Shown here piece by piece: positions 2,222 through 63,881 of a DNA stretch of 64,000 nucleotides. The position numbers and the translations under genes were made by a program. Numbering within the stretch: position 1 is the first letter of the stretch; the number at the start of each line of letters is the position of its first letter. The DNA comes from Amphiscolops sp. MND2022 (Eukaryota). Location of the stretch: contig OZ076409.1 in the NCBI GenBank assembly GCA_964187785.1, positions 66,962,001 through 67,026,000 of the forward strand. The letters are read 5' to 3'. Below the pieces are notes generated by a model, which ran no database searches, was not told the origin of the DNA, and saw nothing but the letters and a program-made list of their open reading frames with translations.

Positions 2222-2245
2222 GAATCCTGAAACAAAAATTCTGAA

Positions 2246-36272: not shown

Positions 36273-36288
36273 TCTGGAATAGTTTTTA

Positions 36289-36306
36289 TGGCGACCACAG
36301 AGGGAT
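36289..36306 (+). promoter_or_regulatory. Primer binding site (probably tRNA-Arg)
   Basis: TGGCGACCACAGAGGGAT; TGG complements the tRNA CCA end; identical to 45717-45734; tRNA identity recalled from the ...GTGGTCG-CCA end of Arg tRNAs. Confidence 0.85.
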
Positions 36307-36899: not shown

Positions 36900-37560
36900 G
36901 TTACTTTTAAAAGTCGAAATTTTTCAGAAGATAGTAGGACCAATGGGAATACAATAAAAACGTTCTATTAGACCTATCAGGTCAGGAACAGAAAAATTTG
37001 TTTAGCTAAATTGTCTAAAACACCGAAAACTTTAGCGATTTTTGTTTGAAAACGTCAACTTTGGACTTTGAGACGAAAAATGGTGAGGGCGAAGCCCTGT
37101 TCGTTTTTCTCAGAGCATTGCGAGCCACCTAAAATTCTTTTTCCCGAGCCAGATATTAGAAAACGTTATCGTCAAGCAGTTTTTTGAGGCCCTCCAATGA
37201 AATATTGAATAAGTTACCAGCCAATTTTAATTTTCATACAATAGCCACTTATTGGTCATCATTAGTTACAAAAGCCAAAATTTTTCAGAAGAGGGTACGG
37301 CCAGTGGCAATACAATAAAAACGTTCCACTAGACCTATCTGGCTAGGAACAAAACTTTTTAACCCGCTAATTTACTTGAAAACAAAAAAAAATTAGCGAT
37401 TTTTGTTTGTGAAGACCCAAAATTGGCCTAACGGACCAAATGTGGTGAGGGCGAAGCCTTGAGCGTTTGTTCCAAAGCTTTCAGAGCTGCCCAAAAACAT
37501 TGTTCCCGAGCTTGGTGGTACAAAACACTACTGCCAAGACGTTTTTTTACCCTTCCCCAA
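36900..37560. repeat. Diverged ~361-bp direct repeat in the non-autonomous element interior
   Basis: ACAATAAAAACGTT..TAGACCTATC..AGGAACA..TTAGCGATTTTTGTTTG..TGGTGAGGGCGAAGCC..TTCCCGAGC at offset ~361. Confidence 0.9.
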
Positions 37561-40249: not shown

Positions 40250-41004
40250 TGTAACGTCCGGCAGTCGGCGTTGCAGAAGTTTTTGAAAATTTCGATCAAA
40301 AATTCGAAATGTGCGACATCAAACAAGCACATTCAAGATGGCCGACCCGGCAGGTACGAAAACCGCAGAGGAAGCAAAAATAAAGGCAAAACACCACAAG
40401 AAAGACCCAACCCACCACCCAGGAACGAGAATGTCCGAGATGTCATCACCCAGAAGGCGTGAGAATCAGGAATTCGGCCATCTGACAGCAAAAGGACAGG
40501 GTTTTGGCAGAAAAGTGCCAAATGAGACCATTGTGCCCCGAAGATGAGGAATGATGCCAGAGGCAGGAAGCCGATGATCGCCACCGAACTGTAACTGTAT
40601 ACTTTATTGGGGCCTATCCCCACCTACTTTGACTGTTTATAGCGTATTTGGATAATGTTTGACCTACTAGGGCCTCATTTTAGTCCTTATTCACTCAATA
40701 TACTGTATTTCAGCTAGACACCTTTTTGGACCTCGGAAGTATGTGGGAAGTCGTAGGAACGTGCTAGAAACCTTAGGATACGTTTTTACAGGCTTGTGGG
40801 GCGTGTCCGGACTTTGAGAGTGCCGGCACGTCGCCTCGGAGCTCTAACTAGAGGAGCCTCCTTAGACGTTAGAAAAGTCCCCCTTGGAGACCATTTTGGG
40901 ATCAAAAACTAGTGTCTAGGTATGTAGTAAGACAACGGTCTCCTGTTTAAGCATCCTAGGCATTGTCCCTCTTCCTAGATGTGCGCCGCTAGCCGGACGT
41001 TACA
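40250..41004 (+). repeat. 3' LTR of the non-autonomous element
   Basis: Copy of 35518-36272, preceded by hairpin GTTTGTCG-AGGA-CGACAAAC and PPT GGGGAGGA. Confidence 0.97.
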
Positions 41005-44987: not shown

Positions 44988-45701
44988 TGTAACGGCAACT
45001 GCCCATGTCAAAATTTTCGAAGCAAAAATTCGTTCAAATCTGACGTGGCACTCAAACATGCTCCAGACGAAAGACCTGTCAGAAAAGCAGAAAAAAATCA
45101 GAAATCGCCCCCCGCGAGAGACGACGAGAAGAGAAGACGTAGAAAGCAGTCCCTAGAACACGGTGATGTGCCCATCTTTGGCGTTTACACTACGTAGGTA
45201 ACAGAAACCGGTGTTCCAGATGCTCGCCTGAAGATCCTGCGGTGTCCGGTGCGGTGACGAGCGCTAGCGCTGGGAAGCCATGGTCGATTCGCTCCTGTTA
45301 AATAACTCGAACTTGTGATATTGTTATGTCTATTGTGCTTTCCTTGTTGTAGTAGATTGATATGCTCGAGAGCTGCCCATTTACATCTATGGTTACCCCT
45401 TTTTGATGTCGATTTTATCAGATTCTCCAATACTATGGCTCAACATCCTCCTGTTTTCAGTCCCTTTTTTAAAGGCTAATTGAGCAGTGGTCTTGAGACA
45501 TGCAAGATGCCCGTTACTTTTAGCAGTTACAGACTAGGACCAGGCCAGAGAGTTTCCAACAAGACGGTTCCCCCACCTTGGGACTGGCTCCTTCGGAGGG
45601 AAAATGAGCTAGGGCCGCGGAGATCTAAGTCCCGGATTATATTCGCTGTTCTAGTTCCTCCACTCTACGTTGCGGTTCAAGCGCCAGCGCTTATCGTTAC
45701 A
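44988..45701 (+). repeat. 5' LTR (714 bp)
   Basis: Matches 63167-63881 except GCAG-AAAAAAA-TCAG versus GCAG-ATCAGAAA-TCAG. Confidence 0.97.
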
Positions 45702-45716
45702 TAGAACCTCATTTTT

Positions 45717-45734
45717 TGGCGACCACAGAGGGAT
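45717..45734 (+). promoter_or_regulatory. Primer binding site (probably tRNA-Arg)
   Basis: TGGCGACCACAGAGGGAT, 15 nt downstream of the LTR end. Confidence 0.85.
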
Positions 45735-46909
45735 CGTCTTGGGAAGCTTTCCCTAGCGGTTTTTAAAAGATCTGGCCCCCTGGTATTCAGCGCCAAGCCC
45801 GTTTCGACTCTGGAAAAGGAGAGAGAAGCAGAGTTTTACCCTTTTTTAGTCGTGTGACATTCTACTGGAACTGGGAGAGGCGTTGAACCAGAGAAAACCC
45901 GAAAAAATCACGTTTTCAGGTGCGAAAATGGTATTTTTAGGTATTCTGGAAGGAAATCGATATTTTGTGTGATGTGTTGTGTGCCCATCAGAGGGTATCT
46001 TTTTGCAGGTGCTGAGGACCGTAGCACGTGGCTACGGGTGTTTAACAGGTTTTGCAAGCTATTTTCAGCCATTTTATGCCATGCAAGAAGGTAACTGGTG
46101 GATGGCTGACCATGAACCAGCGAGGCGAAGGGGAAGTCAAATTGTGTGTTGCCTACTTTCTACTCCCATTTCTCGTGGAGACGTCCTAGAGGTATGGTTT
46201 TTGGTGGACAGCAAGTGCAATTGCAGACGATGCTAATGGTCCAAACCGCGTGTCTCTATCTGGTCTGGATGTGGAGAAAAAGCGTGGTGAAGGTGCACCC
46301 CCTGTGACCGGACGCGTCGCTCAAATGGCTCATGGTCGGTGAAATTTTTGAAAATGCACCTTTTTCGACGGGGAATCGTTGGTGCAGGTCAGTAATGTTT
46401 TATTGTAGATGTAACGACACCCTACGAAGTGCTTTTCTGCAAAAAAGATAGCACTTGCGTGAAAAAACCCTGATTTTGCGTTTTTTCGTGTTTTTCGTGG
46501 TTTTGAGCACTTGTGCTCAGCGGAACCAGGAAAACTTCGTGAAAAGTGTTGTAAAAAGCAGCTGCAAGGCTCGAGAAAGCTAGTACGAGGCACAGAAGGC
46601 CGTAATTTTGCCTTTGGTTGTGATAAAAGTGCCGATCTAGCAACAGAAAATTGCAAAAAAATGGAATTTTGACCAAAAAGGCACCCAGAAACACAGGCGT
46701 ACACTTGTGTAGAAGTGTGAAAAAGCAGTGTACGGTGTTTTGTCAAGCGTAGTAAACCCACAGGACACTAACTGTAACTTTTACAGCGGATTCAGGCAGC
46801 CTGGGGCTGACACGGTGCAAAAAACCGGTAATTTAAGGTGCTTTTAGGCATAAAAAGTGCATTGTCTGAAAGTCTTGAGAGTGAAACTTAGTGGACCAGA
46901 GCGAGTCTG

Positions 46910-47720
46910 AACGCTCTTATTTTCTGTTGTCGCAATAAAAATAACGCATTGTGGTGAAAACCGCGTGCAAAAACTCCTTTTCAGTGTCGAGAAAAGTCGA
47001 TAAACCTAGAATTTCAGTTAGTTTCAGGAGTGTCCTAGCACACAATAAAAACCCCCTGGGCACTCTGTCTTTTTGTTAATCAGGAGCTTTCGTGCTCTCG
47101 TTTTCTGTTTCTATAGTAAAAACCACGCATTGTAGTGAAAACCGCATGCAAAAAATCCTTTCCAGTGCTGAGAAAAGTGGAAAAACGCACCGAATTTGAT
47201 CAATTTTCCACAAAACCGGACCGTCTCTGAGCTAGGGTCGGGTCATCGATTCCTGAACCCTAGCCAAAAAGTGGTTGCATTTTCGTAACCACCACAAAAA
47301 TTAACGTTGGTGCCGAAAATTTGGTGGGCGTATCGGTCACCAAAGTCGAGAAAAGCTCTCTGACGTTTCGACCTCAGAGAAGCGTAAAAGGACCGAAAAA
47401 ATCCAAAACTGCAGGACTGTCAGTGCCTTATACCTAACGGGCACAACCAATTGGGGGCTTATCCCAGTGCTACGGATAGTGGGGCAACACGTTGGTCCCA
47501 TTGTACCCGCCGTATCACTTTCTGAGGTGATCCTCTTCGTCAATTTGTGAAAAAAGTCGTCAAAAACAGTGTTTTTTCGTGTACAACGTACATAGTGGGT
47601 CGAAACCTCAAATAAGCGCTTGCGCTTCAATTCGACCATATCAGTGGCATTGTAGGTGCCCACTGGCATAGACTACTACGTTTGGTGCCAATCTGTGTGA
47701 TACTTGTCGAGAAAATAGGA
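46910..47720. repeat. ~180-bp phased degenerate repeats in the 2.7-kb 5' leader
   Basis: Clear pair at 46920/47101 (offset 181); G(T/C)(C/T)GAGAAAA at 46986, 47167, 47345, 47706. Confidence 0.75.
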
Positions 47721-48406
47721 AAAACGCGGCGCCCAAAAAGGTGTGCAAAAAGGTAGTTTTTTTTAAATTTTTCCAAGTAACCCGGGTACCTTAGCCGACG
47801 GGTGGGGCCCTATTGCAGCTCACCATCGTAACTTGTACTAGTTCCTACGTTGTTGCAGAGAATTTGAGCTGGGTAGCTTTTTCCAGTGGACCGCAATCTG
47901 GAAAAAGACGTGAAAAACAGTGTATCTCGGTACATAGTGGTACCGCACGTCTGTACCTAGGTGAAACTGTGTAGAAGGGGTGCAGCTCAATTCTGTGTTT
48001 ATTTTCGTAAACCTACGCGTACCTAAGATCTGCTGGTCAATTTTGGGCTTGATACAGCGCTTCCAGCGCACACACGAGCCTCTTGAGTGTTGTTGTGCGA
48101 TTTTTGGAAAATCCAGAAATTCTTTGAAATTCTTCCTGTGAGTGACCGGAGGCTTTTGGCCCCAAACTAGATCGATTTTCTGACCCAGTGTGCTTGTGGG
48201 AAAGTGCTGTGCGAATTTGAGCAGCCTACGAGCCTTAAAACGTATTTCGAGAAATTTGGGACGTTGCGAAACAGTCAAATTTCTTAAGTCCACACCGAGA
48301 CGAGCCTAGAGCTAACCGCGACTCGACAAATCCCACGTTCTTCGAGACTTCTATAAAGGCTACATCCGAATCGTTGACACCTGCTCTGCCATTGGCATCG
48401 TGTGTA

Positions 48407-51400
48407 ATGGTCCTACCAGGCCTGGAAAAGCTTGACATGAGTTCGCAGTCATGGGTGACCATAGGATCCACAATGGACGGTTCGCATTTTTCAGACGAAA
48501 TGTCTGACGAAGTCACTATCGAGCAACAACGCAAGGAGGAATTGGCCGCCATGGTCCCTCCCTCTGAGGGTTCCGTTGCATCTGGAAGCTCTCGTCGAAC
48601 CGAACAATGGGTCGAAGAAACCTGTCGTGAAAGAGCCAATGAAGCAGAAGAGGAGTGGCCCAACTCAAACGTGACCAACGAACTTGCAGCTGAGGAAGGG
48701 TGCTCTCGCGCACCCCTAGGGGAAAAGATGAGCTCCCGCCTACAGATCACGGTGGATGAGGATCTTACCTACTCGGAGAACACGAGTGGTGCGAGACCGC
48801 AAGGGTCTGGAGTCACTCGAAGTAACACTAGAGTTTGTGCCTATGGCAAACACAAGAAAGTGCGACCACCCATGATAAATGTAGGTGAACGTCAAGTTGA
48901 AGTGCCTCGTAAGAGGAGCGTGGCAGGTTCAGTGGCATCGTCCCAACGATCTTCGGTGTACAAAGCCGCAATATTGGAAGCCCAAGCCGAGACCCAACGT
49001 GCCTTAGCTGAACTGGCTAGCACTCGTGCTGGGTGCAATGACCAACATCGTGCCATCGCAGAAAATATGAGAACGTTGCAGACAACGATGCGAGAAGGAT
49101 TGCAGGTCAGTGATCAACTGCGAACCGCGCAGAACACGCAGAGTGCTCGCGTAGATGCACTAGGCTACAGAATGGGTGAGATGAATGACCTCTTGATGGC
49201 CCGTGAACTTCGTGTGGAAACCCAGATCAATGATTTGAGTAACCAAATGCACACTGTGCTCAATGCTATCAACATCATGAGGCGCGAAAGGTCCCTCCCA
49301 CGACAATCTGGTGCCACTGAAGGTGTGCCGATCGCGGATTCAATTAAGATTCCGGAATCATCGCACCAGGGTCAGGCAACAAAACCAGAAGTGGCGAGCG
49401 CATTGAAGCCTAGCACCTCCAAGTCGACGACGCCTGAAACCCGAACCAAGGATCCTGTACCCATCATGGCTGCTGTGGAGCGTAAACCTGCACGGGTGCA
49501 GGTAAGAGGGCCCCACGACTCCTCGTCGATGAGTCAAATAACATCCTCCGTAGTTCGAAGTGCCACCCGAGACCAAGGTGTGGACCCGATGTCACCTATC
49601 TATCTAGATACTTCTACCGAAGTTGATTTATCCTGTACTAAGGCCACACTAGGGTCCCAGACTGATGGAGCTGCGTATGCGACGGCCCCTACCATGGTTT
49701 CTGGAACGGACTCCCTGTATCTGACCGCCGACTGGACAGCCGAGGACGGAATGCCCTCGGGCGCTCCTTGCGCGAGTAGCACTCGCAGGAAAGAAGACGT
49801 GACGAACCTCTCAGTGCGAGCTACGCATGGCAGTGACGACGGTACTGATGAAGTGGCACCCAAGGAAGGAGAGGCTGAAGTCATCTCTCCCGAGCAATTG
49901 AGGTTCACTGCCGCCATCTCCAAAGCAATGTCCAAAGAGCTAGCACCGTTGCTTGCGGGACGTGACCTGGCTCAAACCAAACCCAGCGTGTATCGAGGCT
50001 CTAAGGACGGGTCTATTGATGGCTGGATCTTAGTGATGCAGCGATACTTGAAAAGAGTCCAAACCAAGATCTCGGCCGAAGATCGGGCCTGGAGCATTAT
50101 CGGTCACCTCGAGGGTGAGGCTCGCAACTACATCATCAACAAGGCTGAGTCTGAACGTGACACCCCCGAGAAGGTGTTTGAGTTGCTATCTAGCCGATTT
50201 GGCGCGGGAGGAAATCGTATGCAGGTGCGGCAGACCTTCCAAAGCCGCGTCCAACAAGAAAAAGGGGACTGGATGCAGTACTTAGACGCTTTAGAGGGTC
50301 TCAGGAGCCAAGGATTCCCGCAAGAAAGTATCATTACCAAACGTTATGAAATCTTGCAACGCTTCATGGAAGGTGTGCGAGATCCAGTGTTGAGGCGTGA
50401 ACTTGCCATAGTATACGCCTCGGAGACTTTTCTTACCGAACCCCCTACCGTGGAGTCCTTGCGATTTACCACACGTCAATTGCAACGAAATCGTCCCAGA
50501 CCCACCCAACCTCAACAACCCTATGATCCCAGATTAGCCATGAGGTCTAGACCTCATCCTTTCGCACCACTGCCGCCGAACAAGATGGTTATGCCGCAGG
50601 GCGTCCTGCCACCTCCGGCGCCACCCCAAAATGTCCCAGCTCCCGCTGTCCCAGCGCCCGCCCGAGCGCCGGTAGGTGCTTGTTTCCACTGTGGGCAAAA
50701 CGGACATTTTGCTCGCGAGTGCCCCAATCGTGACCAAGCCCGAAAACCAATGACTGCCTCCGAACCAGAGGGCGTAAAGGTGACCACGGAAGACACGACC
50801 GATGGTATCCTTGAAGGTCATCCGGGGATCTATCAATGCACGAGCTGTGGACTTTTCGATCAGGCGGAAGTGCAATGTGGTGAGCACTCCCATGCGCCGA
50901 AACCCAATGACGAGTTGGCCTACAATCGATGGGCTGAGGTCGAATCAGCTGGCATCGCCGCGCACACCGTACCTTTGGAAGATGACCGTGTGTTGATGCT
51001 ACATCCAGCGGAACCGCCTGCGTTCCACACTCCGATGACATTCACTTGTGGTGCTAAGCAAATTCAGACCTGCTTGGAACCCACGACGTTCGATCCGCAA
51101 GGACGGACGCTGATTTCAATTCACCTGTTGCTGGCAGCTGAGCAAATACGTAGGCCGACGCTAACTCTGGCGAAGCTATGGGTCGAATTGTCTATCCTCT
51201 ACAAACGAAACGAGTTGCCTCGACCGAAAGAATGGTACGCTCCGGGAGAGTCTGCGACTCTGACAACATATTCCCCAGTGCCAGTCTGCGCTTCAATGGA
51301 TGGAGTGGATATGAAATTCGAAGCCTGTGTGGTGGTGGATGTATTTCCCCCTGGCATTTGTCTGGGTCCCCAGGAGCTCAAATGCTATAACATCAATCAT

Positions 51401-54400
51401 CAGGAGCCCACCGGCGAAGCGCGTATAGATGAGCGTGCGTCGCTCGTGGTCTCTTTCGTGGTGCCTCATGCAGCACCTATTCCGCTGCGAGGACTGGTGG
51501 ACACTGGCTCGGGCGTCTCCATACTGACGTTTTCCGCCTTCAACAGAGTGGCAGCTCGAACTGGAACGGTACTTAAACCCTACCAAGTTGACCTGTACGC
51601 AGCCAACGGGAAGACAATAAAGACCTACGGCCTCGCAGAACACATCCATTTCCAGCTGGGAGGATACGAACTTGAAACGAACTTTGTGGTGGTAGATGAC
51701 GCAATGGGTGTGGAAGACTTCCTACTTGGCCGGAACTTTCTTCGCTCCTACCAGGTGTTAGTGGATCTAACATCTATGAAGATTGTGGTGCGAGCACCAG
51801 TGAAGCCTGTGTGGCATCATGCTCACGCACAGGTAGGTGACACTTCAATAGCTACTCCAGTCGTTTTGGACAGTGACTTGGTCCTGCAACCTTTCGAACG
51901 AGCGGTGGCTAGAGCCAAGCTCGTCACCAACACACTAGAGCCGCTGATTTTTCAAAGCGTAGCGCTCAATGCCTCTTTGTCTGACACTACGTTGCACAAT
52001 GTCGTCTTTTTAGAGGACAGCGTGGCCACTGTCAGTGAGACAGGAACACTCTTTGTGAGCCTGATAAATCTCACCAGCAACCCTCAACGCATGCGGTGTG
52101 GTGTACAACTGGGCACCGTAGTACCCATAACGGTAGTATACCAAGCAGTACCTCAATGTTTGGACTCTCCCACTACAACCCGCACAAAAACTGACGCCGA
52201 CGACAGTCGTGCAAATTTTGTTCATAAAATTTATAGTGAAGTGAATCTATCCACTGCTTCTGAGTTAACCTCTTCTTCAGAATTTGAGTTTTTGTCCTCT
52301 ACTGACCCTAGCGAGGCAGGACTATCGGAGCGCGAGATTCGCAAGCGAACGGACCCAGAGCTAATGGCTCCGATTCCTGGGCCGGAATCTCAGCTCAAGG
52401 CGGTCAAGGATTTATGGGGCGCTAGCGCCTGCGAGTCTCTCCGTAACCTCCTCGATGAATTCGATGAGCTATTCATGAAACACAAAGCGGACATCGGTCG
52501 GTGCACTATCGCTAAGCACACCGTGGAGGTGGAACCAGGGGCTGTACCGCATCGTGAAGGTGCTCGCCGGATGTCCCCTGAGAAGGCCGAACGTGCCAAT
52601 CAGGAGGTACGGAACCTCTTAGCTCTGGGAATGATACAGCCCTCGCTGTCCCCTTGGGCGAGCGGCATTGTAATGGTGAAAAAGAAAAACGGGGAGTTGC
52701 GCTTTTGCTGCGACTTCCGCCCGTTAAATGAGGTAACCATTAAGGATGCTTATCCCTTGCCCCGCATTGATGAAAGCCTGGCACGGCTAGGCAAGGCGAA
52801 GATCTATACCAGCATAGACCTTGCTTGGGCCTTTTGGCAAATTCCTGTGCGAAAGGCGGATCGCCACAAAACCGCTTTTGCTTGTGAACTAGGACTTTTT
52901 GAGTGGCGGCGAATGCCATTTGGTATGTGCAATGCATCTGCCACGTTTCAGCGGTCAATAGCGCGTGCGCTAAGGAATATTGTCAATCGTGAGGGCAGCA
53001 TGGTCATGGCCTACATTGATGATATCGTGATTGCCACAGAGACTGTGGAAGACCATATGGTACGCCTACGTGAAGTCTTTGAATGCCTCCGTGAAGCCGG
53101 TTTCAAAATGCGCGTGGCCAAATGCGATTTCATGAAATCGGAGATCAAGTATTTGGGACGAGTGGTTTCCGCAGAAGGAGTAAAGCCCGACCCGAAAGCC
53201 GTCGTCAAGTTGCGCGATTGGGAAATTCCCCGTAACAAGACGGAGATGCAGAGTTTCCTTGGATTCGCCAACTATTACCGCGAATTCATCCCTTGGCACG
53301 CTAAGCTGGTTGCACCCCTGCACGCCGTCACTGGACTGAATGCCACCTTCGCCTGGGGTCCTGAGCAACAAACCGCATTCAATGAGATCAAAAAAGCCCT
53401 AATCGAGGCAACTGCGCTCGCGCAGCCTGATTCCGAAGGAGAGTTTGTGTTGGACACTGACGCTAGTGCTGTCGCCATTTCTGGTATCCTGCACCAGTGG
53501 CAAGGTCCTCCGGGTGAACGACGCCTGAGACCGATAGTTTACGGTAGCAAGAAGCTCACCACCACACAAGCCAAATACGGAGCTCCCAAACTTGAAATGT
53601 TCGCCGCCTACTATTTCATAGTGAAAAACCACAGCTATCTATGTCCCCGGAAATTCACCCTGCGGGTGGACAACCAAGCTTTGTCCTGGTTGAAAACCTA
53701 CTCCACGGATCAAGCGCTAATCGGCCGATGGATTATGACCCTGGAGAAGTATCACTTTCGCGTGGAACACCGCCCGAGAACTCAACATCGAAACGCCGAT
53801 GGCTTGAGCAAACGAACCAACGAGTACCGATGCCGCGAGAAACAGCTTGCACAGCAGCCAGCTGCGGGCGAACGCTGGAATTTTCTTTCAGCTGACGAAT
53901 TTGATAAACTACCTGTTGCCCCATGGTTCGACCTTCAGGGTCGAGTCATCCCGAATCATCCCGAGCTACCTGCGCACCTGCAGAACTTGGAGCCTAAGGC
54001 TCCCAACCAATTGCTACGCGTGCTTCGCCGCACCAAACGAGCGAGCAGGAGGGACAGACAAGCAAAAGCATTCGCAGCCCCCTTGCCGCCTCCGCCTTCC
54101 CTTGCTCTGCAACCGCACGAGGATGCCTATCCAGACTACCCTGAGGACTGGATTGATGTGACTGATGAAGCACGCGAAGATTATCTATTACCGACGCATG
54201 CCGTAAATGTACCCTCACGTACCGTCTATGCCATTGCTGGGGCGAATCCTGTTGCGCTGCAGGGTACTCCCTCGGGTGTACGCGACTCAATTTTGGCTCT
54301 TAAAGACATCAACACTGAACTTCACGAACATGCTCACACCGTGCATGGTATCAAAGATTTGATTCTAGCCCAAAATCGTGATGTTCATGTGCTAGCACTC

Positions 54401-57400
54401 AAAAAGTTGGTGCTAAACGAACCCATCGATCATGACGTGTTTCCCGAGAACGTGCGTGAGTTCGCACGCAACTACTACCGTCAAAAGAAAACTCTCCTGT
54501 TTATTAACAAGAATGGTGTGCTTTGCGTACGATACCCTCCCAACCAACGTCCTCTGCACGAACGTCCGTGCATGATCGTCATGCCTCAACTGTACCAGCA
54601 TGAGATTTTATTCCGCGCGCATGACGCCATGGGACATCAAGGTATCTCCAAAGTGGTGGCTCGGATTCAAGAACGTCACACATGGCCTGGTATTCGGCGC
54701 AGCGTGGGCCGTTACGTTGGCCAATGCCTCACCTGTCAACAAGTTCGAGATAAGCCTGGTGACGTCCGATTCCACCTAAAGAACATCCAGAGCGGATACT
54801 TCAACGAATTGGTCCAATATGATCATCTGAAGATCTGCCCCTCAGACAGTAATAACACTGGCATCTTGGTCATAATTGACCATTTCTCCAAGTTCGCGGA
54901 AGCAGTGCCCTGTAGTCATCACGACTACGACGCTGTGACTACCTCTCGGTTGCTGTTACAAAAGTGGTTCGCCCGTCATGGCACACCCACTAGAATGCAG
55001 TCTGACAATGCCCCAAATTTGACTGCTGAGGTGTCCAACGAATTCCTAAAAGCAGCCCACGTTACCAAAGTAACCTCTACGGCTAGCCATCCGAGAACCC
55101 AAGGCTTGGTGGAGCGTCAAAATCGGACGCTGTTAACCCTACTGCGAGTTTTTTGCTCCCGCCGTATGCGCGACTGGGACCAATGTCTTGATGAGGTCAT
55201 AGGCGCCTACAACTCTACGAGGCACGCCACCACTGGCTTCTCACCCTACATGCTGACCCGTGGTGTAGAGAAGGCCATCCCTCTCACGTTCTTGTATCCC
55301 GAATTTGCAGCCAAATCATTCGAGTCGCATGAGGCGTATGTCGATCATGTATTGGCTCGCCAGCAGGAAATACATGACTTGGTACGGCGTAACACGCACC
55401 AAGCCCAATTGCGTCAAAAGTTGAAGTACGACCGTGCTATACAAGCGCGAGCTTACCAAGTAGGCGAGCTCGTCTGGGTATTTTGCCGCTACGTACCGCA
55501 AAAGGGTTCCCCGAAATTGATGCGTGCTTGGCGAGGCCCGCACAAGGTTGTACAAATCTTTCAGGACGGTCGTGTCTATGTGCTAGACACAGGTCAAAAG
55601 GTTCATTTTGAGCGTCTTAAACCGCACCACAGTGGCCCACTTGAACTTGCTACTGCACACACGGACAGTGGTGAGGTGGTGGTCCTTATGGACCCCGAAC
55701 CTGAACGTTCCGTCGACGTAGTTGATGACGACAAGTCTCTATCGTCGTATAAACCCGAACAACTACTTTCAGAAGCGTCCGATGCATCTTTGCCCTCACG
55801 TCGACGTCACTGGATGGACACTCGACTACGCACGAAACTTCGCGCAGGCGGCTCCCGCCCGCATTATCAGCAATTTGACTATTCCACCTCAGGTACAGAC
55901 GACGAACTATCCGATGCCATGTTGCCGATACCTCCAGTTGACGAGGATCTAGTGGAGCCTGCGGCTCCTCCGACTGCGTTGGATCAGTCGATATCCCCTG
56001 CCCGTGTACTACCTCAACTGTTCTCTGACCATGAGCGCGTGCGCTCACCGTCTCCACAGATATCCTCCTCCGAAAAAGAAACATCGTTACCAGGAACCTC
56101 AGCATCCTTGTTGACGAATCCCTCGCTAACCAATTTTCTTAGCAACTATCCCATATGGCCGACCGCCCCTCCGATTCCTCTCAAATCTGCCAGCAACGAC
56201 AGCAACGTTCAGCCCGATCTGCCTGAAGCTCCCGAGATTTCGCCAGGAGCGGGGACCGCTCCTTCTTTTAAAAGGGGGAGGGGGAGACCACCCAAGGCAC
56301 AGAAGAAACGGCTGATCCGAGCGAAGGCAAGGACGAGGAAGAAAGAAACACCGAGAAATGCCGAAACCGAAACTGCGATCCAGGCCGAAACGGAAGCTCC
56401 CAGAACTGCAGAGACGCTAACAGAGGCATCTGCAACTGCTCTTAGGTATCAACTAAGGAGTAAACGGCAGCCGCGCTACAAGTGTGGAACCTGCGGGCTG
56501 CGAGATTGTGTCTGCCTATTAGCTGTGAATGAGAACCGGAGGGTTCCCATTGGAGCCCGGGGAGTTCCTCCGGAAGAGAGAGAAAACTTGGTGTACCGCC
56601 TCACGGTGCGGGCCGAGAAAACCTACTCAGCTGTAGAGCGGTCTGGAGACCACCCTGTGGACACTATCCTGGAGAAGTTGTCACTGCCCGGGGTAGCGAA
56701 GGCCCCTTGTCCGAGGTTTAAGGAGTGGACTAGCGATGGAAAGGGCCTGGAGTTTACCCTGTCCACGGTGTTGCCCCCTGTGCCCAGCAATATTGCGTTT
56801 GGGCCATTCAATTTTGAAAGGGAACCTGTGCAGATGGTCCGATGCATCACTGCCGACTTGTTATGCGACAAGTATGGAGTCCAGGTGGAACCAGGAGGGG
56901 TATACAGCCCGGCTCCTCACTGGTGGCTGCTGGTAACAGCTCCACGAGTGGAGGCGATGGTGGAACCGTTGAATCTGTTATCCTGTCTAGAGAGTCTGAG
57001 GACCCTCACCACTGTGGACTTAATACTTTGCTTCCATATCATAGACTGGTACCGAGGCAAGATGAAGTTCGCGTGGTGGCTGGAATTAATAATCACATGT
57101 TTCGCCACCTATCCCAGAATTCGACTATTAGACGAGTGGACTCACACCTTCGAGATCCCCTTGTTCCCCAAAGCCGCCCTGGGAACTTTAGATGTGTGGG
57201 TAAAGGCCGGCAGCGACAATCGGGCGATGCCCCGCTCAGTATGGCAAGACCTGGCTGCAGTCCAAGGGCGTACCCCTCACGTGTGTCTGCCCTCCGATAA
57301 TGGTCCCGGACGAGAGATTGTTTACCCGGGAGCCCTGTATCCGAATTCAGCCGAACACGTCTCTTACGATGAATCCGATTTCTTGCAGGCCGAGGGCGAC

Positions 57401-57817
57401 ATAGTGTTAGCATGCCCTGCTGACCTAAAGACCAACTCTGCCGCCCTGCGATATGTGCTGCGGGAGTGCGGCATAGAAGATGTATTTGCCTTACGACCTA
57501 AAGTGGGCGAGATTCTCACTATCCCGCCTGATGTGAACCCCAACCCTAACCAAAGTATTCACCTGTTAATAGTCCGTGCTAACCAGCGCGCACCGCTGCT
57601 GACAGATGACTACTTGCGTTGCATGACGTACTTGATACAGCGCCTGATAGATAAAGGATCCACACGGGTCCACTTACCCATTCTGGACCCCGAGAGACCG
57701 GCTTTCTCGTTGGTCAATCTGTACCATACTCTAACGAACATGTTCGAGGGTACTGGTATTCACGTGGTTTTGCATAGCCGCGTATATGTATCAATATTAA
57801 CTATAGGGCTGAAGTAG
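48407..57817 (+). CDS. gag-pol: Gag-Pol polyprotein (~3,136 aa from the first ATG) with a C-terminal extension ending in a macrodomain
   Basis: Capsid-like region ~49980-50460; CCHC CFHCGQNGHFAREC 50681-50722; protease LVDTGS (D at 51500); RT YIDD at 53012; RNase H LDTDAS ~53450; IN HHCC ~54620-54740 plus D,D,E (IIDHFSK, QSDNA, LVERQN); GPY/F-like WRGPHKV; AT-hook 56270-56296. Confidence 0.97.
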   Translation: MVLPGLEKLDMSSQSWVTIGSTMDGSHFSDEMSDEVTIEQQRKEELAAMVPPSEGSVASGSSRRTEQWVEETCRERANEAEEEWPNSNVTNELAAEEGCSRAPLGEKMSSRLQITVDEDLTYSENTSGARPQGSGVTRSNTRVCAYGKHKKVRPPMINVGERQVEVPRKRSVAGSVASSQRSSVYKAAILEAQAETQRALAELASTRAGCNDQHRAIAENMRTLQTTMREGLQVSDQLRTAQNTQSARVDALGYRMGEMNDLLMARELRVETQINDLSNQMHTVLNAINIMRRERSLPRQSGATEGVPIADSIKIPESSHQGQATKPEVASALKPSTSKSTTPETRTKDPVPIMAAVERKPARVQVRGPHDSSSMSQITSSVVRSATRDQGVDPMSPIYLDTSTEVDLSCTKATLGSQTDGAAYATAPTMVSGTDSLYLTADWTAEDGMPSGAPCASSTRRKEDVTNLSVRATHGSDDGTDEVAPKEGEAEVISPEQLRFTAAISKAMSKELAPLLAGRDLAQTKPSVYRGSKDGSIDGWILVMQRYLKRVQTKISAEDRAWSIIGHLEGEARNYIINKAESERDTPEKVFELLSSRFGAGGNRMQVRQTFQSRVQQEKGDWMQYLDALEGLRSQGFPQESIITKRYEILQRFMEGVRDPVLRRELAIVYASETFLTEPPTVESLRFTTRQLQRNRPRPTQPQQPYDPRLAMRSRPHPFAPLPPNKMVMPQGVLPPPAPPQNVPAPAVPAPARAPVGACFHCGQNGHFARECPNRDQARKPMTASEPEGVKVTTEDTTDGILEGHPGIYQCTSCGLFDQAEVQCGEHSHAPKPNDELAYNRWAEVESAGIAAHTVPLEDDRVLMLHPAEPPAFHTPMTFTCGAKQIQTCLEPTTFDPQGRTLISIHLLLAAEQIRRPTLTLAKLWVELSILYKRNELPRPKEWYAPGESATLTTYSPVPVCASMDGVDMKFEACVVVDVFPPGICLGPQELKCYNINHQEPTGEARIDERASLVVSFVVPHAAPIPLRGLVDTGSGVSILTFSAFNRVAARTGTVLKPYQVDLYAANGKTIKTYGLAEHIHFQLGGYELETNFVVVDDAMGVEDFLLGRNFLRSYQVLVDLTSMKIVVRAPVKPVWHHAHAQVGDTSIATPVVLDSDLVLQPFERAVARAKLVTNTLEPLIFQSVALNASLSDTTLHNVVFLEDSVATVSETGTLFVSLINLTSNPQRMRCGVQLGTVVPITVVYQAVPQCLDSPTTTRTKTDADDSRANFVHKIYSEVNLSTASELTSSSEFEFLSSTDPSEAGLSEREIRKRTDPELMAPIPGPESQLKAVKDLWGASACESLRNLLDEFDELFMKHKADIGRCTIAKHTVEVEPGAVPHREGARRMSPEKAERANQEVRNLLALGMIQPSLSPWASGIVMVKKKNGELRFCCDFRPLNEVTIKDAYPLPRIDESLARLGKAKIYTSIDLAWAFWQIPVRKADRHKTAFACELGLFEWRRMPFGMCNASATFQRSIARALRNIVNREGSMVMAYIDDIVIATETVEDHMVRLREVFECLREAGFKMRVAKCDFMKSEIKYLGRVVSAEGVKPDPKAVVKLRDWEIPRNKTEMQSFLGFANYYREFIPWHAKLVAPLHAVTGLNATFAWGPEQQTAFNEIKKALIEATALAQPDSEGEFVLDTDASAVAISGILHQWQGPPGERRLRPIVYGSKKLTTTQAKYGAPKLEMFAAYYFIVKNHSYLCPRKFTLRVDNQALSWLKTYSTDQALIGRWIMTLEKYHFRVEHRPRTQHRNADGLSKRTNEYRCREKQLAQQPAAGERWNFLSADEFDKLPVAPWFDLQGRVIPNHPELPAHLQNLEPKAPNQLLRVLRRTKRASRRDRQAKAFAAPLPPPPSLALQPHEDAYPDYPEDWIDVTDEAREDYLLPTHAVNVPSRTVYAIAGANPVALQGTPSGVRDSILALKDINTELHEHAHTVHGIKDLILAQNRDVHVLALKKLVLNEPIDHDVFPENVREFARNYYRQKKTLLFINKNGVLCVRYPPNQRPLHERPCMIVMPQLYQHEILFRAHDAMGHQGISKVVARIQERHTWPGIRRSVGRYVGQCLTCQQVRDKPGDVRFHLKNIQSGYFNELVQYDHLKICPSDSNNTGILVIIDHFSKFAEAVPCSHHDYDAVTTSRLLLQKWFARHGTPTRMQSDNAPNLTAEVSNEFLKAAHVTKVTSTASHPRTQGLVERQNRTLLTLLRVFCSRRMRDWDQCLDEVIGAYNSTRHATTGFSPYMLTRGVEKAIPLTFLYPEFAAKSFESHEAYVDHVLARQQEIHDLVRRNTHQAQLRQKLKYDRAIQARAYQVGELVWVFCRYVPQKGSPKLMRAWRGPHKVVQIFQDGRVYVLDTGQKVHFERLKPHHSGPLELATAHTDSGEVVVLMDPEPERSVDVVDDDKSLSSYKPEQLLSEASDASLPSRRRHWMDTRLRTKLRAGGSRPHYQQFDYSTSGTDDELSDAMLPIPPVDEDLVEPAAPPTALDQSISPARVLPQLFSDHERVRSPSPQISSSEKETSLPGTSASLLTNPSLTNFLSNYPIWPTAPPIPLKSASNDSNVQPDLPEAPEISPGAGTAPSFKRGRGRPPKAQKKRLIRAKARTRKKETPRNAETETAIQAETEAPRTAETLTEASATALRYQLRSKRQPRYKCGTCGLRDCVCLLAVNENRRVPIGARGVPPEERENLVYRLTVRAEKTYSAVERSGDHPVDTILEKLSLPGVAKAPCPRFKEWTSDGKGLEFTLSTVLPPVPSNIAFGPFNFEREPVQMVRCITADLLCDKYGVQVEPGGVYSPAPHWWLLVTAPRVEAMVEPLNLLSCLESLRTLTTVDLILCFHIIDWYRGKMKFAWWLELIITCFATYPRIRLLDEWTHTFEIPLFPKAALGTLDVWVKAGSDNRAMPRSVWQDLAAVQGRTPHVCLPSDNGPGREIVYPGALYPNSAEHVSYDESDFLQAEGDIVLACPADLKTNSAALRYVLRECGIEDVFALRPKVGEILTIPPDVNPNPNQSIHLLIVRANQRAPLLTDDYLRCMTYLIQRLIDKGSTRVHLPILDPERPAFSLVNLYHTLTNMFEGTGIHVVLHSRVYVSILTIGLK
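57356..57817 (+). other. TARG1/OARD1 (Poa1p)-like macrodomain at the Pol C-terminus
   Basis: VSYDESDFL..DIVLACPADLK..CGIEDVFALRPKVGEILTI..IHLLIVR..KGSTRVHLPIL..MFEGTGIHVVLH aligns by eye with the OARD1-type pattern (YVKGDLF..LAHCISED..GEVAVL..IYYLITK..GVTDLSMPRIGCG..VFEATDIKITVY). Confidence 0.75.
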
Positions 57818-58112
57818 CCTTATCATTTTAGTTGTCCCCATTTTTCCTTTGCCCTCAGTTCTTGTAACAATTCTTGTAACAACCTTGGAAGAGTCTTGAA
57901 ATGCTCTCGAGATGTTAATTTGTCATGTTGTTCACTCAAAGGTTTTGTTCTAGTTCGTTAGTTAGTTAGAGTTAAATTTTAAGTTTGTAGTGGCCCCCTT
58001 ACGGAGCCGATTTTGCCTGGCTGCAATTGAAGGACGAACCGACCCACGGCTCGTTCCAGAGAGAACTTGTCCCTGTAAGTCTAACAGTGGTCCTTTTTAG
58101 ACCTATGCATTA

Positions 58113-61100
58113 ATGGCCCATTGCCCAAACAATTCAGCGCCTGCAACAGGGTCTAATAGTGCAAGGCCCCAGGAATCTGCGCGAGCGCAGAGGGTCAATC
58201 AGGCCCAATATGTCGAAGAAAGGCTGCGGGACGGTCTTTCGCCAGTAGCCGTAGCTGGGGTGGCTGCCCTACTGACCCAGCTTGAATCGATGCAAATGCT
58301 GCCAAATGCATCTTTGTCAATCACTACGGAGGTGGCAGGCTATCGTCGCACCTTGACGTGCACCAACAATGCCTGGGATGGGCACGACCTGACTCACCAG
58401 TTCTTGGACGAAAGATCAATCGCAGTGCATGGCCCCAGCCAGGGCACCAGATTCGAACAAGAAGCATCACTGCGTATGATCCCCGTCAACGTCCCATCGC
58501 TGCCTTCCATTTCGGCACCAAATCCAGTGCAGACGACGCCGCATTCTAGCTCGATTGCTTATGGGGCACCATATGGAACCCGGGCAACGACGACGCAAAA
58601 CATTACCAATCAACCAGCCTCAAGTCGGGAGCCCTCGGGGTCCCAACTGCCATCAGTGCCTAATCTAAATCTGATCGGACGGAGTGCCAGCGAGCAAGCG
58701 GTGATTGTGGCCCTGCAGGCTGTCGCCAACTACCCCAACTCCTCTGACTTCGTTCGTGCAGTTGAGCAAAGGATTCCCGGATTGGCACATTACTTGCAAG
58801 CCGCAGCTCAGCCCTCGGGCTGTGTCACCCCACCCACCACCCTAGCCGAAGCTGTGTCTATGGAAGCAGAAACTACGGCTGGACCAAGCACCGGCGCCAT
58901 AACCTATCCCCGTGAGGAAACTGGACGGAAGCGACTTACTGAGGAAAACATCGTCGCTACACGCCATGATTCCGTGACCGACAGTCCGACCAGTCGTCCC
59001 CCTCCGGACAAGCGAGCAGATGTACCCCACCAGTCGCAAATGAAAAGTGTAGTGGTCGTGAGGCCTCCATATCGCGTCGGCCACCTAGGCGTAGGCGCGC
59101 CTCAAATGTCCCTGGAAGAGGCCATCAACCGCTACGGCAGTGTGGATGCGAATCCTGAAACGAATCCTGTGCCCTTGGGCACAGGCTCTGCCAACATGTC
59201 CCTGGAGGTGCCCGAGACAGTCGAAGAGACCAGTCCTCCCGCCTTTCTTCCCCCGTCCGATGATGTATCCGGCTCCGTGGTAACTAGCGATAGCAAACGC
59301 ATCTGGATGGCGGCAGAGTGTTTGCACCCGAACACATGTGCGATTAGAAGGAGAGCACCGCCGTCGGACGCCGAGCAAAGAGAGGTGAGCAGAATCACCA
59401 TTGCGGCTCAAATAACTCGATCGCTACGTGCCCGTGATGCGGACCTAAGTGAGCAAGCCTGGGAACAGCGTGCTCGAGAGCAACTGCCCGCCACACCCAA
59501 CAACTACATGGCTCGCCTGCAGCATGACCTCACCGAGCAATTTCCCGCTAGGTACATATTGCACGAAGGAGAAACCTGGGAAGCAAACGCCCGCTACGCT
59601 CGCAATATCAGGTCAATGAAGCCCCTCTTGAAAGCAGCTCTGCAGCGTGCGCGCTATTGTGTGGCAGTAGATTCGACACTCAAGAGTGATCTGCCCATCG
59701 ATAACCTTCTGCCCGATGTGCTGGTGTTAACAATGCCACTCTCCCGCTTCGCCGAGGTCGCAGAGATGGTCGCGGTTATGTACGACCCAAACCTGAGAGG
59801 GTCCCTAAGAGAGCCGCCCCCGCGACGTGTAGTCTCCACCAACTTGATCGACCACATGGCTTGTGAAGGACTGCTACACAACCTGGATGCCCTCATGGCA
59901 GATACCCGTAGACCTGGGAATGTGGCGACCTTAGTAAACGTGGTTGCAGACGCAATGGAGCGTGCAGCAGGGATCCTTCGGGGTCGTCTGGGAGCGCTCG
60001 CGCTCTTCACATCCCCGCCGGGATTCATGTATTGGCAACGAAGCTTGCAGCAATTTGTGTACATCTTGTCTGAGGTATGTAAGGCGCGCCGAATCGAGTT
60101 TGCTATTTGTGCGCCAAACCTCCGGGTTGATCGCGGAGACCTACGCCCCGATGCATTGTCATACCCCGCCTTCTTTGCTGCCGTATCAAGAGTGCTAATC
60201 ACTGTGGAACGCTCGGGAAATGCACAACTGACTATCGACGACGCCGTACTGTTCGACCATGGAATGTGTATGGGGCGAATGGCCTTCGACTTGGACGGGA
60301 ATCGCGTCATGCGAGCATCTAACATGAGTGAGCGAGAGGCCGTTCGACGCTACAACTGGTTGGTGCGGAAGGACAAAGAAATTCCCGTACGAGCAGAGCT
60401 GGCAGAGCTCGTGAAGGAAATTGAAACCTGGCCTGCCACACGCACGGTCGAAAGGACCATTCCCCAAATTCGGTTTGCCGCGGGAATAGAGCCTGTCAAG
60501 TTGCCCGTGGGCATGAGGTACGTCGTGGCTATAGAGGCGACTAACTTGAAGACTGAAGTAGATGCCGCCGGAATAACGTATGCCGAATGGTATCAGTCCA
60601 GATTCGTGGACAGGACCTTGGCCGAGGTAGCTCAAGAGCTTAACTGTCCCTTGGAAGCCTTTTGTACCAGTCTCGGACTAGGCTGGAACATTGACGTAAT
60701 AGCCTCTGAGTACTTGCTCACCAATGTGCAGACTGACAAATTGTTGGAAACCATCGGCGAAACTACTGTAGGAGAGATGTTAGCGCTCGCGCTAACCATG
60801 GGCCCGACGAAGTTTGTGGCAGGTCCCCTGGCTATGTTAGTCGAGTTGGTAGTATCCAGTGATCTAGTCACCTTTTACAGCTACCTGATCCTCGCGCAGG
60901 GACAGCTACGCAGCCTAACTCGATGGGGCCACCTCCTAAATTCCAAGGACCAGCAAGATTATGTCACCCAGCTGGAACGCATGCGTGCGTCCCTCCAACA
61001 TTGGTTGTATTCCACCCTAGTGTTCGCCTCTGGCTTGTTCGTAGGCGTGGATCAATCGCAACCCCTCCACCATTCCGAGCGTCAACTCCCTGCGGAAACG

Positions 61101-61298
61101 GCGGGATTCCCCATGCCTCAGCAAATCGCCGATTTGACTCTGGCCGAAGTGGAGGACTTCGTGGCCGTTATGGCTTCCGTCCTGGCTCCAATCTTCGGTG
61201 CGGTCGGTGTGTGCCGGTATCCCACCAAACCATTGGCGAGAGCAGTACAGTGCATATGGTCTCCTCCTGCACCTATCTCCAAGGACGCCCCCCACTGA
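58113..61298 (+). CDS. Extra ORF2 in the env position (1061 aa): low-complexity N-half, SGNH/GDSL-esterase-like domain (~59652-60200), hydrophobic C-terminal helices
   Basis: Long intact ORF between pol and the 3' LTR; SGNH-like blocks CVAVDSTLK, LTMPLSRF, RVVSTNLIDH, LFTSPPG, EVCKARRIEF, GDLRPDALSY. Confidence 0.8.
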   Translation: MAHCPNNSAPATGSNSARPQESARAQRVNQAQYVEERLRDGLSPVAVAGVAALLTQLESMQMLPNASLSITTEVAGYRRTLTCTNNAWDGHDLTHQFLDERSIAVHGPSQGTRFEQEASLRMIPVNVPSLPSISAPNPVQTTPHSSSIAYGAPYGTRATTTQNITNQPASSREPSGSQLPSVPNLNLIGRSASEQAVIVALQAVANYPNSSDFVRAVEQRIPGLAHYLQAAAQPSGCVTPPTTLAEAVSMEAETTAGPSTGAITYPREETGRKRLTEENIVATRHDSVTDSPTSRPPPDKRADVPHQSQMKSVVVVRPPYRVGHLGVGAPQMSLEEAINRYGSVDANPETNPVPLGTGSANMSLEVPETVEETSPPAFLPPSDDVSGSVVTSDSKRIWMAAECLHPNTCAIRRRAPPSDAEQREVSRITIAAQITRSLRARDADLSEQAWEQRAREQLPATPNNYMARLQHDLTEQFPARYILHEGETWEANARYARNIRSMKPLLKAALQRARYCVAVDSTLKSDLPIDNLLPDVLVLTMPLSRFAEVAEMVAVMYDPNLRGSLREPPPRRVVSTNLIDHMACEGLLHNLDALMADTRRPGNVATLVNVVADAMERAAGILRGRLGALALFTSPPGFMYWQRSLQQFVYILSEVCKARRIEFAICAPNLRVDRGDLRPDALSYPAFFAAVSRVLITVERSGNAQLTIDDAVLFDHGMCMGRMAFDLDGNRVMRASNMSEREAVRRYNWLVRKDKEIPVRAELAELVKEIETWPATRTVERTIPQIRFAAGIEPVKLPVGMRYVVAIEATNLKTEVDAAGITYAEWYQSRFVDRTLAEVAQELNCPLEAFCTSLGLGWNIDVIASEYLLTNVQTDKLLETIGETTVGEMLALALTMGPTKFVAGPLAMLVELVVSSDLVTFYSYLILAQGQLRSLTRWGHLLNSKDQQDYVTQLERMRASLQHWLYSTLVFASGLFVGVDQSQPLHHSERQLPAETAGFPMPQQIADLTLAEVEDFVAVMASVLAPIFGAVGVCRYPTKPLARAVQCIWSPPAPISKDAPH

Positions 61299-62392
61299 CC
61301 TATCAGCGAATCGTGCAGGCTGTATTGAGTGGCGAGATGCCGCATGGGTACACCACCTTGAAGTCGGAGAAACAGCTGGAAGAGAATTTGATGGGTCTAT
61401 TGCGTGCCCGCACACGAAAGGCGTGCCCTTTGCCACGAGAATACGGCCCAGTCAACTGGTACTCCGCGCCTCTCAGCCTGAATGGAGTCCCCTTTAGATT
61501 CCCTTGGTCGCAGGAGTTCATACGCAAGGTGATCCGTGCCAGCACTAGTGCTGGTCCACCAATAGATCCCCTGTACGCCTTCAAATGCATCACCTTCCCA
61601 AATCACTATTGGAAGGAGCCACTGGGATGGCCCAGAGCAAAACCCGTTGGTCGCGCCCCTGAAGCTTTCAATCGACAAATCCAGTATATGGAATTGGCTC
61701 AGATCCCAAACTGGATAGAAGGAGCAGCTCAGACTCGTCAGAGGAATCTGCAAAGTCGCGTAACTCCGTTCCCTAGAAAAGCTGCCTGGCGACCGCAGGC
61801 CAAGATGACAATGTCAGGGGATATGTCCATCGTCCAACACGATGAGATCAATTCCGTGCTAGGCCCCGAAGCCCGCGCAGAGTGGGAAGGACATTGCTTG
61901 GAGCTGGAGATTGCCAGCTTCCCAAAATGGAAGCGAGCTTGCGAGCTCTGGAGTCAGCCTGGCTGGGTCTCCAAACGAATATCCTTGGCCGTGGAGAGTA
62001 GAGCTGAACTCGAGAGACAACAGGCGTTCGCGCCTGCCATGCTGGCACCCACAATGGCCATGTCACTAAGTCAGCCCATCGACCGGCCCGTGACTCTGGA
62101 TTTGCCCACTCATATTCTGCAGCCAGAGCCTGTGAGTCCACCATCGACACAGGCCAGTCCTCAGTCATCGCAACCCCAAACCGGAGAACACGCCGCTGAA
62201 CTGACCCCTAACACTATCCTGGTGCCGCCGATCGCCGATTTAACGCTCCCAGAAGACCTATCAGACTCGGAAACAGTAGTTACTGTGGTTCCTGCTCAAC
62301 GTAGAGCGTCAGTTGCGTCGGAAGATGCCAGCAATCCAGGAACTCCCGATGATGCCATAAAGAATCGAGCTCGACGCAGCTCAGCCCAATAA
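60923..62392 (+). CDS. Extra ORF3, in the -1 frame overlapping the ORF2 end; probably the C-terminal part of one ORF2/3 protein
   Basis: 489-codon open frame; protein-like sequence from ~61256 (MVSSCTYLQGRPPLTYQRIVQAVLSGEMP). Confidence 0.65.
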   Translation: MGPPPKFQGPARLCHPAGTHACVPPTLVVFHPSVRLWLVRRRGSIATPPPFRASTPCGNGGIPHASANRRFDSGRSGGLRGRYGFRPGSNLRCGRCVPVSHQTIGESSTVHMVSSCTYLQGRPPLTYQRIVQAVLSGEMPHGYTTLKSEKQLEENLMGLLRARTRKACPLPREYGPVNWYSAPLSLNGVPFRFPWSQEFIRKVIRASTSAGPPIDPLYAFKCITFPNHYWKEPLGWPRAKPVGRAPEAFNRQIQYMELAQIPNWIEGAAQTRQRNLQSRVTPFPRKAAWRPQAKMTMSGDMSIVQHDEINSVLGPEARAEWEGHCLELEIASFPKWKRACELWSQPGWVSKRISLAVESRAELERQQAFAPAMLAPTMAMSLSQPIDRPVTLDLPTHILQPEPVSPPSTQASPQSSQPQTGEHAAELTPNTILVPPIADLTLPEDLSDSETVVTVVPAQRRASVASEDASNPGTPDDAIKNRARRSSAQ

Positions 62393-63166: not shown

Positions 63167-63881
63167 TGTAACGGCAACTGCCCATGTCAAAATTTTCGAA
63201 GCAAAAATTCGTTCAAATCTGACGTGGCACTCAAACATGCTCCAGACGAAAGACCTGTCAGAAAAGCAGATCAGAAATCAGAAATCGCCCCCCGCGAGAG
63301 ACGACGAGAAGAGAAGACGTAGAAAGCAGTCCCTAGAACACGGTGATGTGCCCATCTTTGGCGTTTACACTACGTAGGTAACAGAAACCGGTGTTCCAGA
63401 TGCTCGCCTGAAGATCCTGCGGTGTCCGGTGCGGTGACGAGCGCTAGCGCTGGGAAGCCATGGTCGATTCGCTCCTGTTAAATAACTCGAACTTGTGATA
63501 TTGTTATGTCTATTGTGCTTTCCTTGTTGTAGTAGATTGATATGCTCGAGAGCTGCCCATTTACATCTATGGTTACCCCTTTTTGATGTCGATTTTATCA
63601 GATTCTCCAATACTATGGCTCAACATCCTCCTGTTTTCAGTCCCTTTTTTAAAGGCTAATTGAGCAGTGGTCTTGAGACATGCAAGATGCCCGTTACTTT
63701 TAGCAGTTACAGACTAGGACCAGGCCAGAGAGTTTCCAACAAGACGGTTCCCCCACCTTGGGACTGGCTCCTTCGGAGGGAAAATGAGCTAGGGCCGCGG
63801 AGATCTAAGTCCCGGATTATATTCGCTGTTCTAGTTCCTCCACTCTACGTTGCGGTTCAAGCGCCAGCGCTTATCGTTACA
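63167..63881 (+). repeat. 3' LTR (715 bp)
   Basis: Near-identical to 44988-45701. Confidence 0.97.

Follow-up and report, generated by a model that had tools for sequence, protein, structure and literature searches.

What is the domain that closes the Gag-Pol protein of a retrotransposon in Amphiscolops sp. MND2022, and what might it do for the element that carries it? The window analysed here (the whole stretch of DNA, 64,000 nucleotides of contig OZ076409.1) contains a copy of this element, and an original prediction, made from the letters of the window, proposed that the last ~150 amino acids of Pol are a TARG1-like macrodomain.

The element and its neighbours

The host of the terminal domain is an LTR retrotransposon of 18.9 kb (Table 1), whose two LTRs are one gap and two mismatches apart in the window copy. 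Its place in Ty3/Gypsy (Metaviridae) is given by the LTRs and by the order protease–RT–RNase H–integrase; indeed Pfam detects zf-CCHC, protease, reverse transcriptase (RT), RNase H and integrase within the Gag-Pol frame in the Gypsy order. The Ty3/Gypsy traits of TG..CA ends, a CX2CX4HX4C knuckle and a GPY/F motif are also present, the last of these reading GPH (55529-55549) and aligning with the GPY of another Gypsy element. No Pfam Chromo match was obtained in Gag-Pol, which ends in a macro fold instead, so that the element is not classed as a chromovirus. The domain had been likened in its position to the chromodomain of chromoviruses: it is indeed an extra domain C-terminal to the integrase, but the analogy is a loose one, as the domain starts ~600 aa downstream of the GPY/F-like motif and closes a tail of ~740 aa. 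A leader of 2.5 kb (45702-48238) separates the 5′ LTR from gag and holds no long forward-strand ORF.

Table 1. Features of the window copy of the element (positions in the window).
Feature	Position	Strand	Basis
5′ LTR, 714 bp, TG...CA ends	44988..45701	+	LTR pair comparison
Primer-binding-site-like TGG stretch, 15 nt past the 5′ LTR	45717..45734	+	Sequence
Gag-Pol open frame, 3192 aa stop to stop, first Met 48407	48239..57817	+	ORF list, Pfam
Gag zinc knuckle CX2CX4HX4C	50681..50722	+	Pfam zf-CCHC, E 4e-6
Reverse transcriptase and RNase H, aa 1480-1838	52676..53752	+	Pfam RVT_1, RT_RNaseH
Integrase: zinc finger, core, GPY/F-like motif	54569..55588	+	Pfam Integrase_H2C2, rve
AT-hook-like RGRP motif within Pro/Ser-rich linker	56270..56296	+	Invariant columns, no profile match
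Cys motif CxxCxxxxCxC, likely metal-binding	56477..56515	+	Four invariant Cys
Conserved beta-rich pre-domain, no fold assigned	56582..56785	+	Model; 19/69 positions invariant
M1, likely first macro-like repeat, more degenerate, without GxG loop	56786..57133	+	hhalign, model
Helical connector M1-M2	57134..57343	+	Model; 12/63 positions invariant
M2, TARG1-class macrodomain, altered pocket	57344..57781	+	Profile, Foldseek, VIA-align
Accessory ORF, no known family, two overlapping frames (58101-61298, 60863-62392)	58101..62392	+	ORF list
3′ LTR, purine-rich tract just before	63167..63881	+	LTR pair comparison

Downstream of Gag-Pol lies an accessory ORF that is broken in the window copy by a frameshift near 61.2-61.3 kb, and a relative of which forms a single frame of 1400 aa at another locus (L136; 27% identity). 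It has no match in Pfam or the PDB, and an SGNH-like look noted by eye was not supported by Pfam or by a two-sequence profile searched against the PDB. Three of the five sister elements examined have too little room for it, yet they keep the terminal module; elements that retain the module can do without the ORF. At locus L148 a different ORF (701 aa from position 6555, with a hydrophobic start), which is possibly envelope-like, follows the pol of an element of the L065 type. Elsewhere in the window there is a 5.5-kb non-autonomous LTR element inserted in an A-run (35517-41004), which has almost no Pol left and LTRs ~78% like those of the family termed B below, as well as a LINE-like element (1268-5088) whose ORF1 and endonuclease/RT, on inspection by eye, lie in split frames, and a 257-bp tandem duplication of 99% identity (13870-14383).

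Fold and pocket of the terminal module

The terminal domain (M2) was delimited as 153 aa (57356-57814), in frame and closing the 3192-aa Gag-Pol frame; its fold begins about four codons earlier, at 57344, and ends near 57781. Sequence searches with few members did not reveal its nature. Pfam assigned no family to the terminal 153 aa or to the terminal 465 aa despite the macro fold, phmmer with the single sequence returned one unrelated PDB match (E 1.1), and a 26-sequence profile returned none, with no macro family found by Pfam among its 26 members. A 97-sequence profile gave five PDB matches at E≤10, all of them human TARG1/C6orf130 (best E 0.0055). The C-terminal 455 aa of Gag-Pol, modelled with AlphaFold2 (pLDDT 81.9, pTM 0.59), matched TARG1 in Foldseek (4j5s; E 5.1e-9, TM 0.82, rmsd 2.3), and VIA-align placed M2 on TARG1 (4j5r) with Z 17.0 and an rmsd of 2.1 over 136 residues, followed by DarG (Z 14.3) and Poa1p (Z 12.8). 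TARG1 also ranked first (Z 15.9) in an unbiased structure search of 48,161 chains, a viral structure library likewise returned macrodomain proteins as matches to the model, and an atlas search placed M2 in a macro cluster at 0.90. A model built from the single sequence (pLDDT 62.9) again had TARG1 at the top in Foldseek, but with E 0.009 and Z <6. HMM-HMM comparison of M2 with the intact TARG1-like domains of other Gypsy elements in this genome gave 96% (E 1e-9). Identity between M2 and human TARG1 is 13%. With a macro alpha/beta/alpha fold nearest to TARG1, DarG and Poa1p, M2 falls within the TARG1/ALC1 class, and the proposal that the last ~150 aa of Gag-Pol adopt a TARG1-class macrodomain fold is almost certainly right.

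The same cannot be said of the enzyme. It had been noted that the catalytic residues and the Gly-rich loop look altered, on the strength of the motifs LIVR (57566-57577) and PILDPERP (57677-57700), and this is borne out among aligned relatives: the position of TARG1 Lys84 is Arg in 51/59 and Lys in one, that of Asp125 is Pro in 31/43, the diphosphate-loop positions Gly121 and Gly123 are Asp in 41/46 and Glu in 36/45, respectively, and Gly43 of loop 1 is Ala in 54/61. Catalytic Lys84, Asp125 and the Gly-rich loops, by which a TARG1 hydrolase is recognized, are thus all replaced in M2. The register between TARG1 and M2 is ungapped through the loop in the profile match, the structural alignment ends at 444 versus 152, and native TARG1 numbering was derived from the one offset that fits Lys84, Gly123 and Asp125 together.

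Lys84 and Asp125 constitute the catalytic dyad of TARG1, and SCO6735 lacks the equivalents of both and yet is active (PMC9411070). Loss of the dyad alone therefore proves nothing, and the prediction of inactivity for M2 rests on the Gly loop, for which a direct precedent is described: the G123E variant of TARG1 is folded and more stable, but ADP-ribose binding and hydrolysis are both abolished (PMC5928194). The pocket of M2 is probably dead, and loss of ADP-ribose binding is predicted with it; the suggestion that M2 may be a pseudo-enzyme is upheld as a prediction by the TARG1-class fold combined with altered catalytic residues. Hydrolase activity of M2, whether by a diverged mechanism or on some other substrate, would be in keeping with SCO6735 and with the polar residues D3062, R3113, D3150, E3152 and R3153, which are invariant in 7/7 family representatives; such activity is nevertheless quite improbable, given that TARG1 loses its activity on substitution of Gly123 and that M2 is under weaker selection than RT and integrase. 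Two residues lining the former pocket, the conserved Arg and the Asp of a CxxD motif, could accommodate a ligand of another kind.

M2 is the end of a conserved folded module of ~400 aa, which is preceded by an AT-hook-like RGRP motif and by a Cys motif. The RGRGRP/RGRP columns and the four Cys of CxxCxxxxCxC are invariant in 7/7 representatives, the latter lying in a region of low pLDDT in the model. Within the module, the segment M1 has an order of strands and helices similar to that of M2 in the model; hhalign of M1 against M2 gave 83% (E 9e-6), against intact macrodomains only 3% (E 0.005-0.013), and two flanking control regions gave E 0.28-0.91 in the same comparison. In the whole-model search, model residues 113-228 (M1) aligned to the macro-like N-domains of LAP aminopeptidases (Z 6.3-6.6), and PARP14 macro 1+2 aligned across residues 111-446; the atlas search with M1 gave no usable match. 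A tree joins M1 with M2 and sets the two apart from the intact TARG1-like domains (95/93), a grouping that carries a warning of long-branch attraction. On these comparisons M1 is likely, though unproven, to be a second and more degenerate macro-like repeat, with moderate support. Across the seven representatives 47/122 positions of M1 and 46/153 of the terminal domain are invariant.

Constraint, insertion sites and target-site duplications

The window family is young and abundant, with 3460 first-look candidates; the 150 of these that were scored share 97-100% identity, and many have an open frame of ~3190 aa. Sister families with frames of 2999-3245 aa reside in the same genome. In every family checked, integrase and module share one reading frame, and the module closes the open frame in 20/20 fetched copies (chosen for long open frames). 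Identity to the window copy is 79-100% for RT in the 18 copies holding RT and 39-99% for M2. Relatives in the protein collection stand at 30-50%, and the best matches in the assembly to two of them (P0082 and P0059) reach only 36% and 45%. A module-free sister lineage was not found, integrase matches dropping from 67% to 26-28% identity.

Absence from related copies or neutral evolution would have spoken against a functional domain, and neither was found. Across 12 pairs, dN/dS for M2 is mostly 0.04-0.21: six pairs with dS 0.6-1.0 give 0.07-0.13 and four pairs of near-saturated dS give 0.04-0.21, whilst one very close pair with few changes gives 0.47 and one further pair has no usable dS. The corresponding values are 0.03-0.13 for M1 (10 pairs with usable dS), 0.00-0.03 for RT (0.15 in the close pair) and 0.13-0.30 for the linker (0.54 in the close pair). 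Among 29 near-identical copies, shared variants in M1 comprise 15 synonymous and 5 replacement changes versus 8 and 9 for singletons; in M2 the counts are 12:1 for shared and 13:1 for singleton variants, and are biased because copies were picked by M2 score. The module is under purifying selection. That the domain is a neutrally decaying passenger would account for its faster divergence than RT (39-51% versus 79-96% identity in the two most distant open-frame families), but is largely refuted by dN/dS far below 1, by the invariant positions of the terminal domain and by the M1 variant counts, and is hardly credible.

The original prediction also held that the domain might be a reader that tethers integration to particular chromatin, or a decoy. 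Placement was tested for the 147/150 and 140/147 listed copies that lie on the 13 large contigs. Neither the share per chromosome, nor the distance from the ends, nor clustering below the megabase scale departed from uniform among these top-scoring copies, apart from a nominal p=0.03 in one of eight tests; flank GC is 37% and 36%, like that of the non-element part of the window. The copies show no megabase-scale clustering, and chromatin steering is therefore unsupported, by a test that is coarse, confined to top-scoring copies and blind to bias at the level of genes or marks. A module that still reads ADP-ribose or poly(ADP-ribose), tethering integration to ADP-ribosylated chromatin or soaking up PARP signals, might be expected from the retained macro fold, from the tandem macrodomains of PARP14 and PARP9, from the basic residue kept in the place of Lys84 and from the ability of G123E TARG1 to bind RNA still, through surface patches (PMC5928194). 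Both diphosphate-loop Gly positions of M2 are acidic, however, M1 lacks loop 1, M2 is net acidic (13 K+R, 18 D+E) and the copies are unclustered; since G123E is a binding-dead mutant of TARG1, an ADP-ribose reader or decoy is unlikely.

Insertion does leave an unusual footprint. In family A an exact 3-bp duplication flanks 35/42 resolved LTR pairs, with seven lacking one and one more pair unresolved; in family B the count is 12/13, and in family C 8/10, with one 4-bp case and one without. For families A and B together this amounts to 47/55 pairs, where shuffled pairings give 2.7% by chance, whilst 4-bp matches occur only in two homopolymer cases and matches of 5 or 6 bp in none. The flanking triplets of the window copy itself agree at only 2/3 bases. 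A duplication of 4-6 bp is typical of Ty3/Gypsy, though not a defining trait, and the module-bearing families depart from it; all three have ordinary TG..CA ends. It was considered that misplaced LTR ends might hide a 4-bp duplication, and this was rejected, as the bases adjoining the triplet are unbiased. At five junction pairs without a perfect duplication (L127, L139, L173, L181 and L191-L192) the two LTR-adjacent bases are the element's own, equal to the bases just inside the LTR boundary on the purine-tract or primer side, as if a 2-nt overhang were sometimes kept during repair.

The DxG region of the integrase core is linked to target binding. In the window element this region (55001-55021) reads D-N-A where DxG is usual, with a two-residue insertion upstream, and these changes may account for the short cut spacing. 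Target-site duplications range overall from 3 to 6 bp, and their length reflects target bending (PMC10045372). The module itself might accordingly be an accessory of the integration complex whose bending or positioning of the target DNA sets the stagger at 3 bp: duplications of that length occur in 3/3 module-bearing families tested, four distant Gypsy elements lacking M1-M2 give 5, 5, 5 and ~4 bp (a further control element, L065, yielded no LTR pair), and a weak palindrome surrounds the triplet, with A in 30/47 cases at -4 and T in 25/47 at +4. Such a role is unlikely, as the integrase core itself differs, no module-free sister lineage is available for comparison, and Troyka elements, which have a short Pol, make 3-bp duplications where other LTR retrotransposons make 4-6 bp (Kojima 2025, PMC12440569). 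Moreover all the module-bearing families form one clade, so the association between module and duplication length counts as a single evolutionary observation. Duplication length has been treated as a conserved class trait. With its TG..CA ends and 3-bp duplications, this Gypsy clade would allow the determinants of integrase cut spacing to be tested; elements of this kind would be expected to escape annotation filters set to 4-6 bp.

Proposed role and relation to known systems

We favour, with a probability of roughly 0.6, the reading that M2 is a non-catalytic binding module closing the Gag-Pol of a young Ty3/Gypsy element, which neither binds nor removes ADP-ribose. A functional TARG1-like domain would first have been acquired by an ancestor, a step that other Gypsy lineages of this genome have also taken; the domain would then probably have been duplicated to give M1 and M2, and its pocket remodelled into a new conserved surface comprising D-P-E-R, the Arg in the place of Lys84 and C-P-A-D. 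The tail (AT-hook-like motif, Cys motif and M1-M2) may remain attached to integrase or be released by the protease, and could help transposition by gripping target DNA together with a protein partner, while scarcely favouring any region. Because M2 is net acidic, its partner is more likely a protein than a nucleic acid. On this account a retrotransposon would have kept the fold of a captured enzyme although the pocket is lost, in a domain to which Pfam is blind. A bolder and rather doubtful extension is that this is a second LTR lineage with a 3-bp stagger, independent of Troyka, which arose because a captured hydrolase was duplicated, disabled and made into an arm of the integration complex; if so, one genome would hold a series from working TARG1 domains at three Pol positions to a tandem pseudo-enzyme reshaping integration geometry.

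Within the literature covered (Repbase, CDD and supplements lay outside its scope), no TARG1-like or (tandem) pseudo-macrodomain in Gypsy Pol and no 3-bp TG..CA Gypsy element was found described, and the passages covered from PMC5408684 and PMC9040795 hold nothing on macro domains. The capture of chromatin readers by transposons is well known (bioRxiv 2021.11.30.470311), and chromoviruses resemble the window element in that an extra folded domain ends Gypsy Pol (PMC12440569, bioRxiv 2021.11.30.470311); the window element differs in having no chromodomain, a long tail and no detected regional clustering. Coronavirus SUD-N/M are not known to bind ADP-ribose. They are, like the module, tandem macro folds within a polyprotein (PMC7729036), but are of unrelated origin and match the model only at Z 6.4-6.8. 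Troyka shares the 3-bp duplication with the window families and is described as having CG..CG ends, a CX2CX8-10HX4C knuckle, no GPF/Y motif and LTRs of 100-400 bp (PMC12440569), none of which traits the window element shows. Macro domains in LTR retroelements are already known, fish epsilon-like endogenous retroviruses carrying macro-domain ORFs (Basta et al. 2009, via PMC4977317); by that account these are Retroviridae, in which the macro domain is an additional ORF.

DarG and Poa1p belong to the same macrodomain class as M2, and human TARG1/OARD1/C6orf130 (4j5r, 4j5s) has the same fold and is its top match in both profile and structure comparison; M2 differs in its replaced Lys84, Asp125 and Gly loop, its fusion to Pol and its likely tandem arrangement. 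The closest counterparts in context reside in the same genome. A genome search with Pfam Macro gave 24 matches, and the 20 loci read comprise three host-gene-like cases and 17 Gypsy Pol proteins (L054-L070), in which the TARG1-like domain lies at one of three Pol positions: after integrase, between RNase H and integrase, or between protease and RT. These lineages, with RT only 23-34% identical to that of the window element, share with it a TARG1-class domain in Gypsy Pol, in some cases also after integrase, but differ in having single domains, most of which keep the TK and GCG-D motifs, and in their 4-5-bp duplications (four elements). Judged by their motifs, the intact domains are candidate active ADP-ribose erasers; they hint at a PARP-type defence acting on transposons, and would provide, alongside the altered M2, natural controls within one genome for the role of ADP-ribose-erasing domains in transposons.
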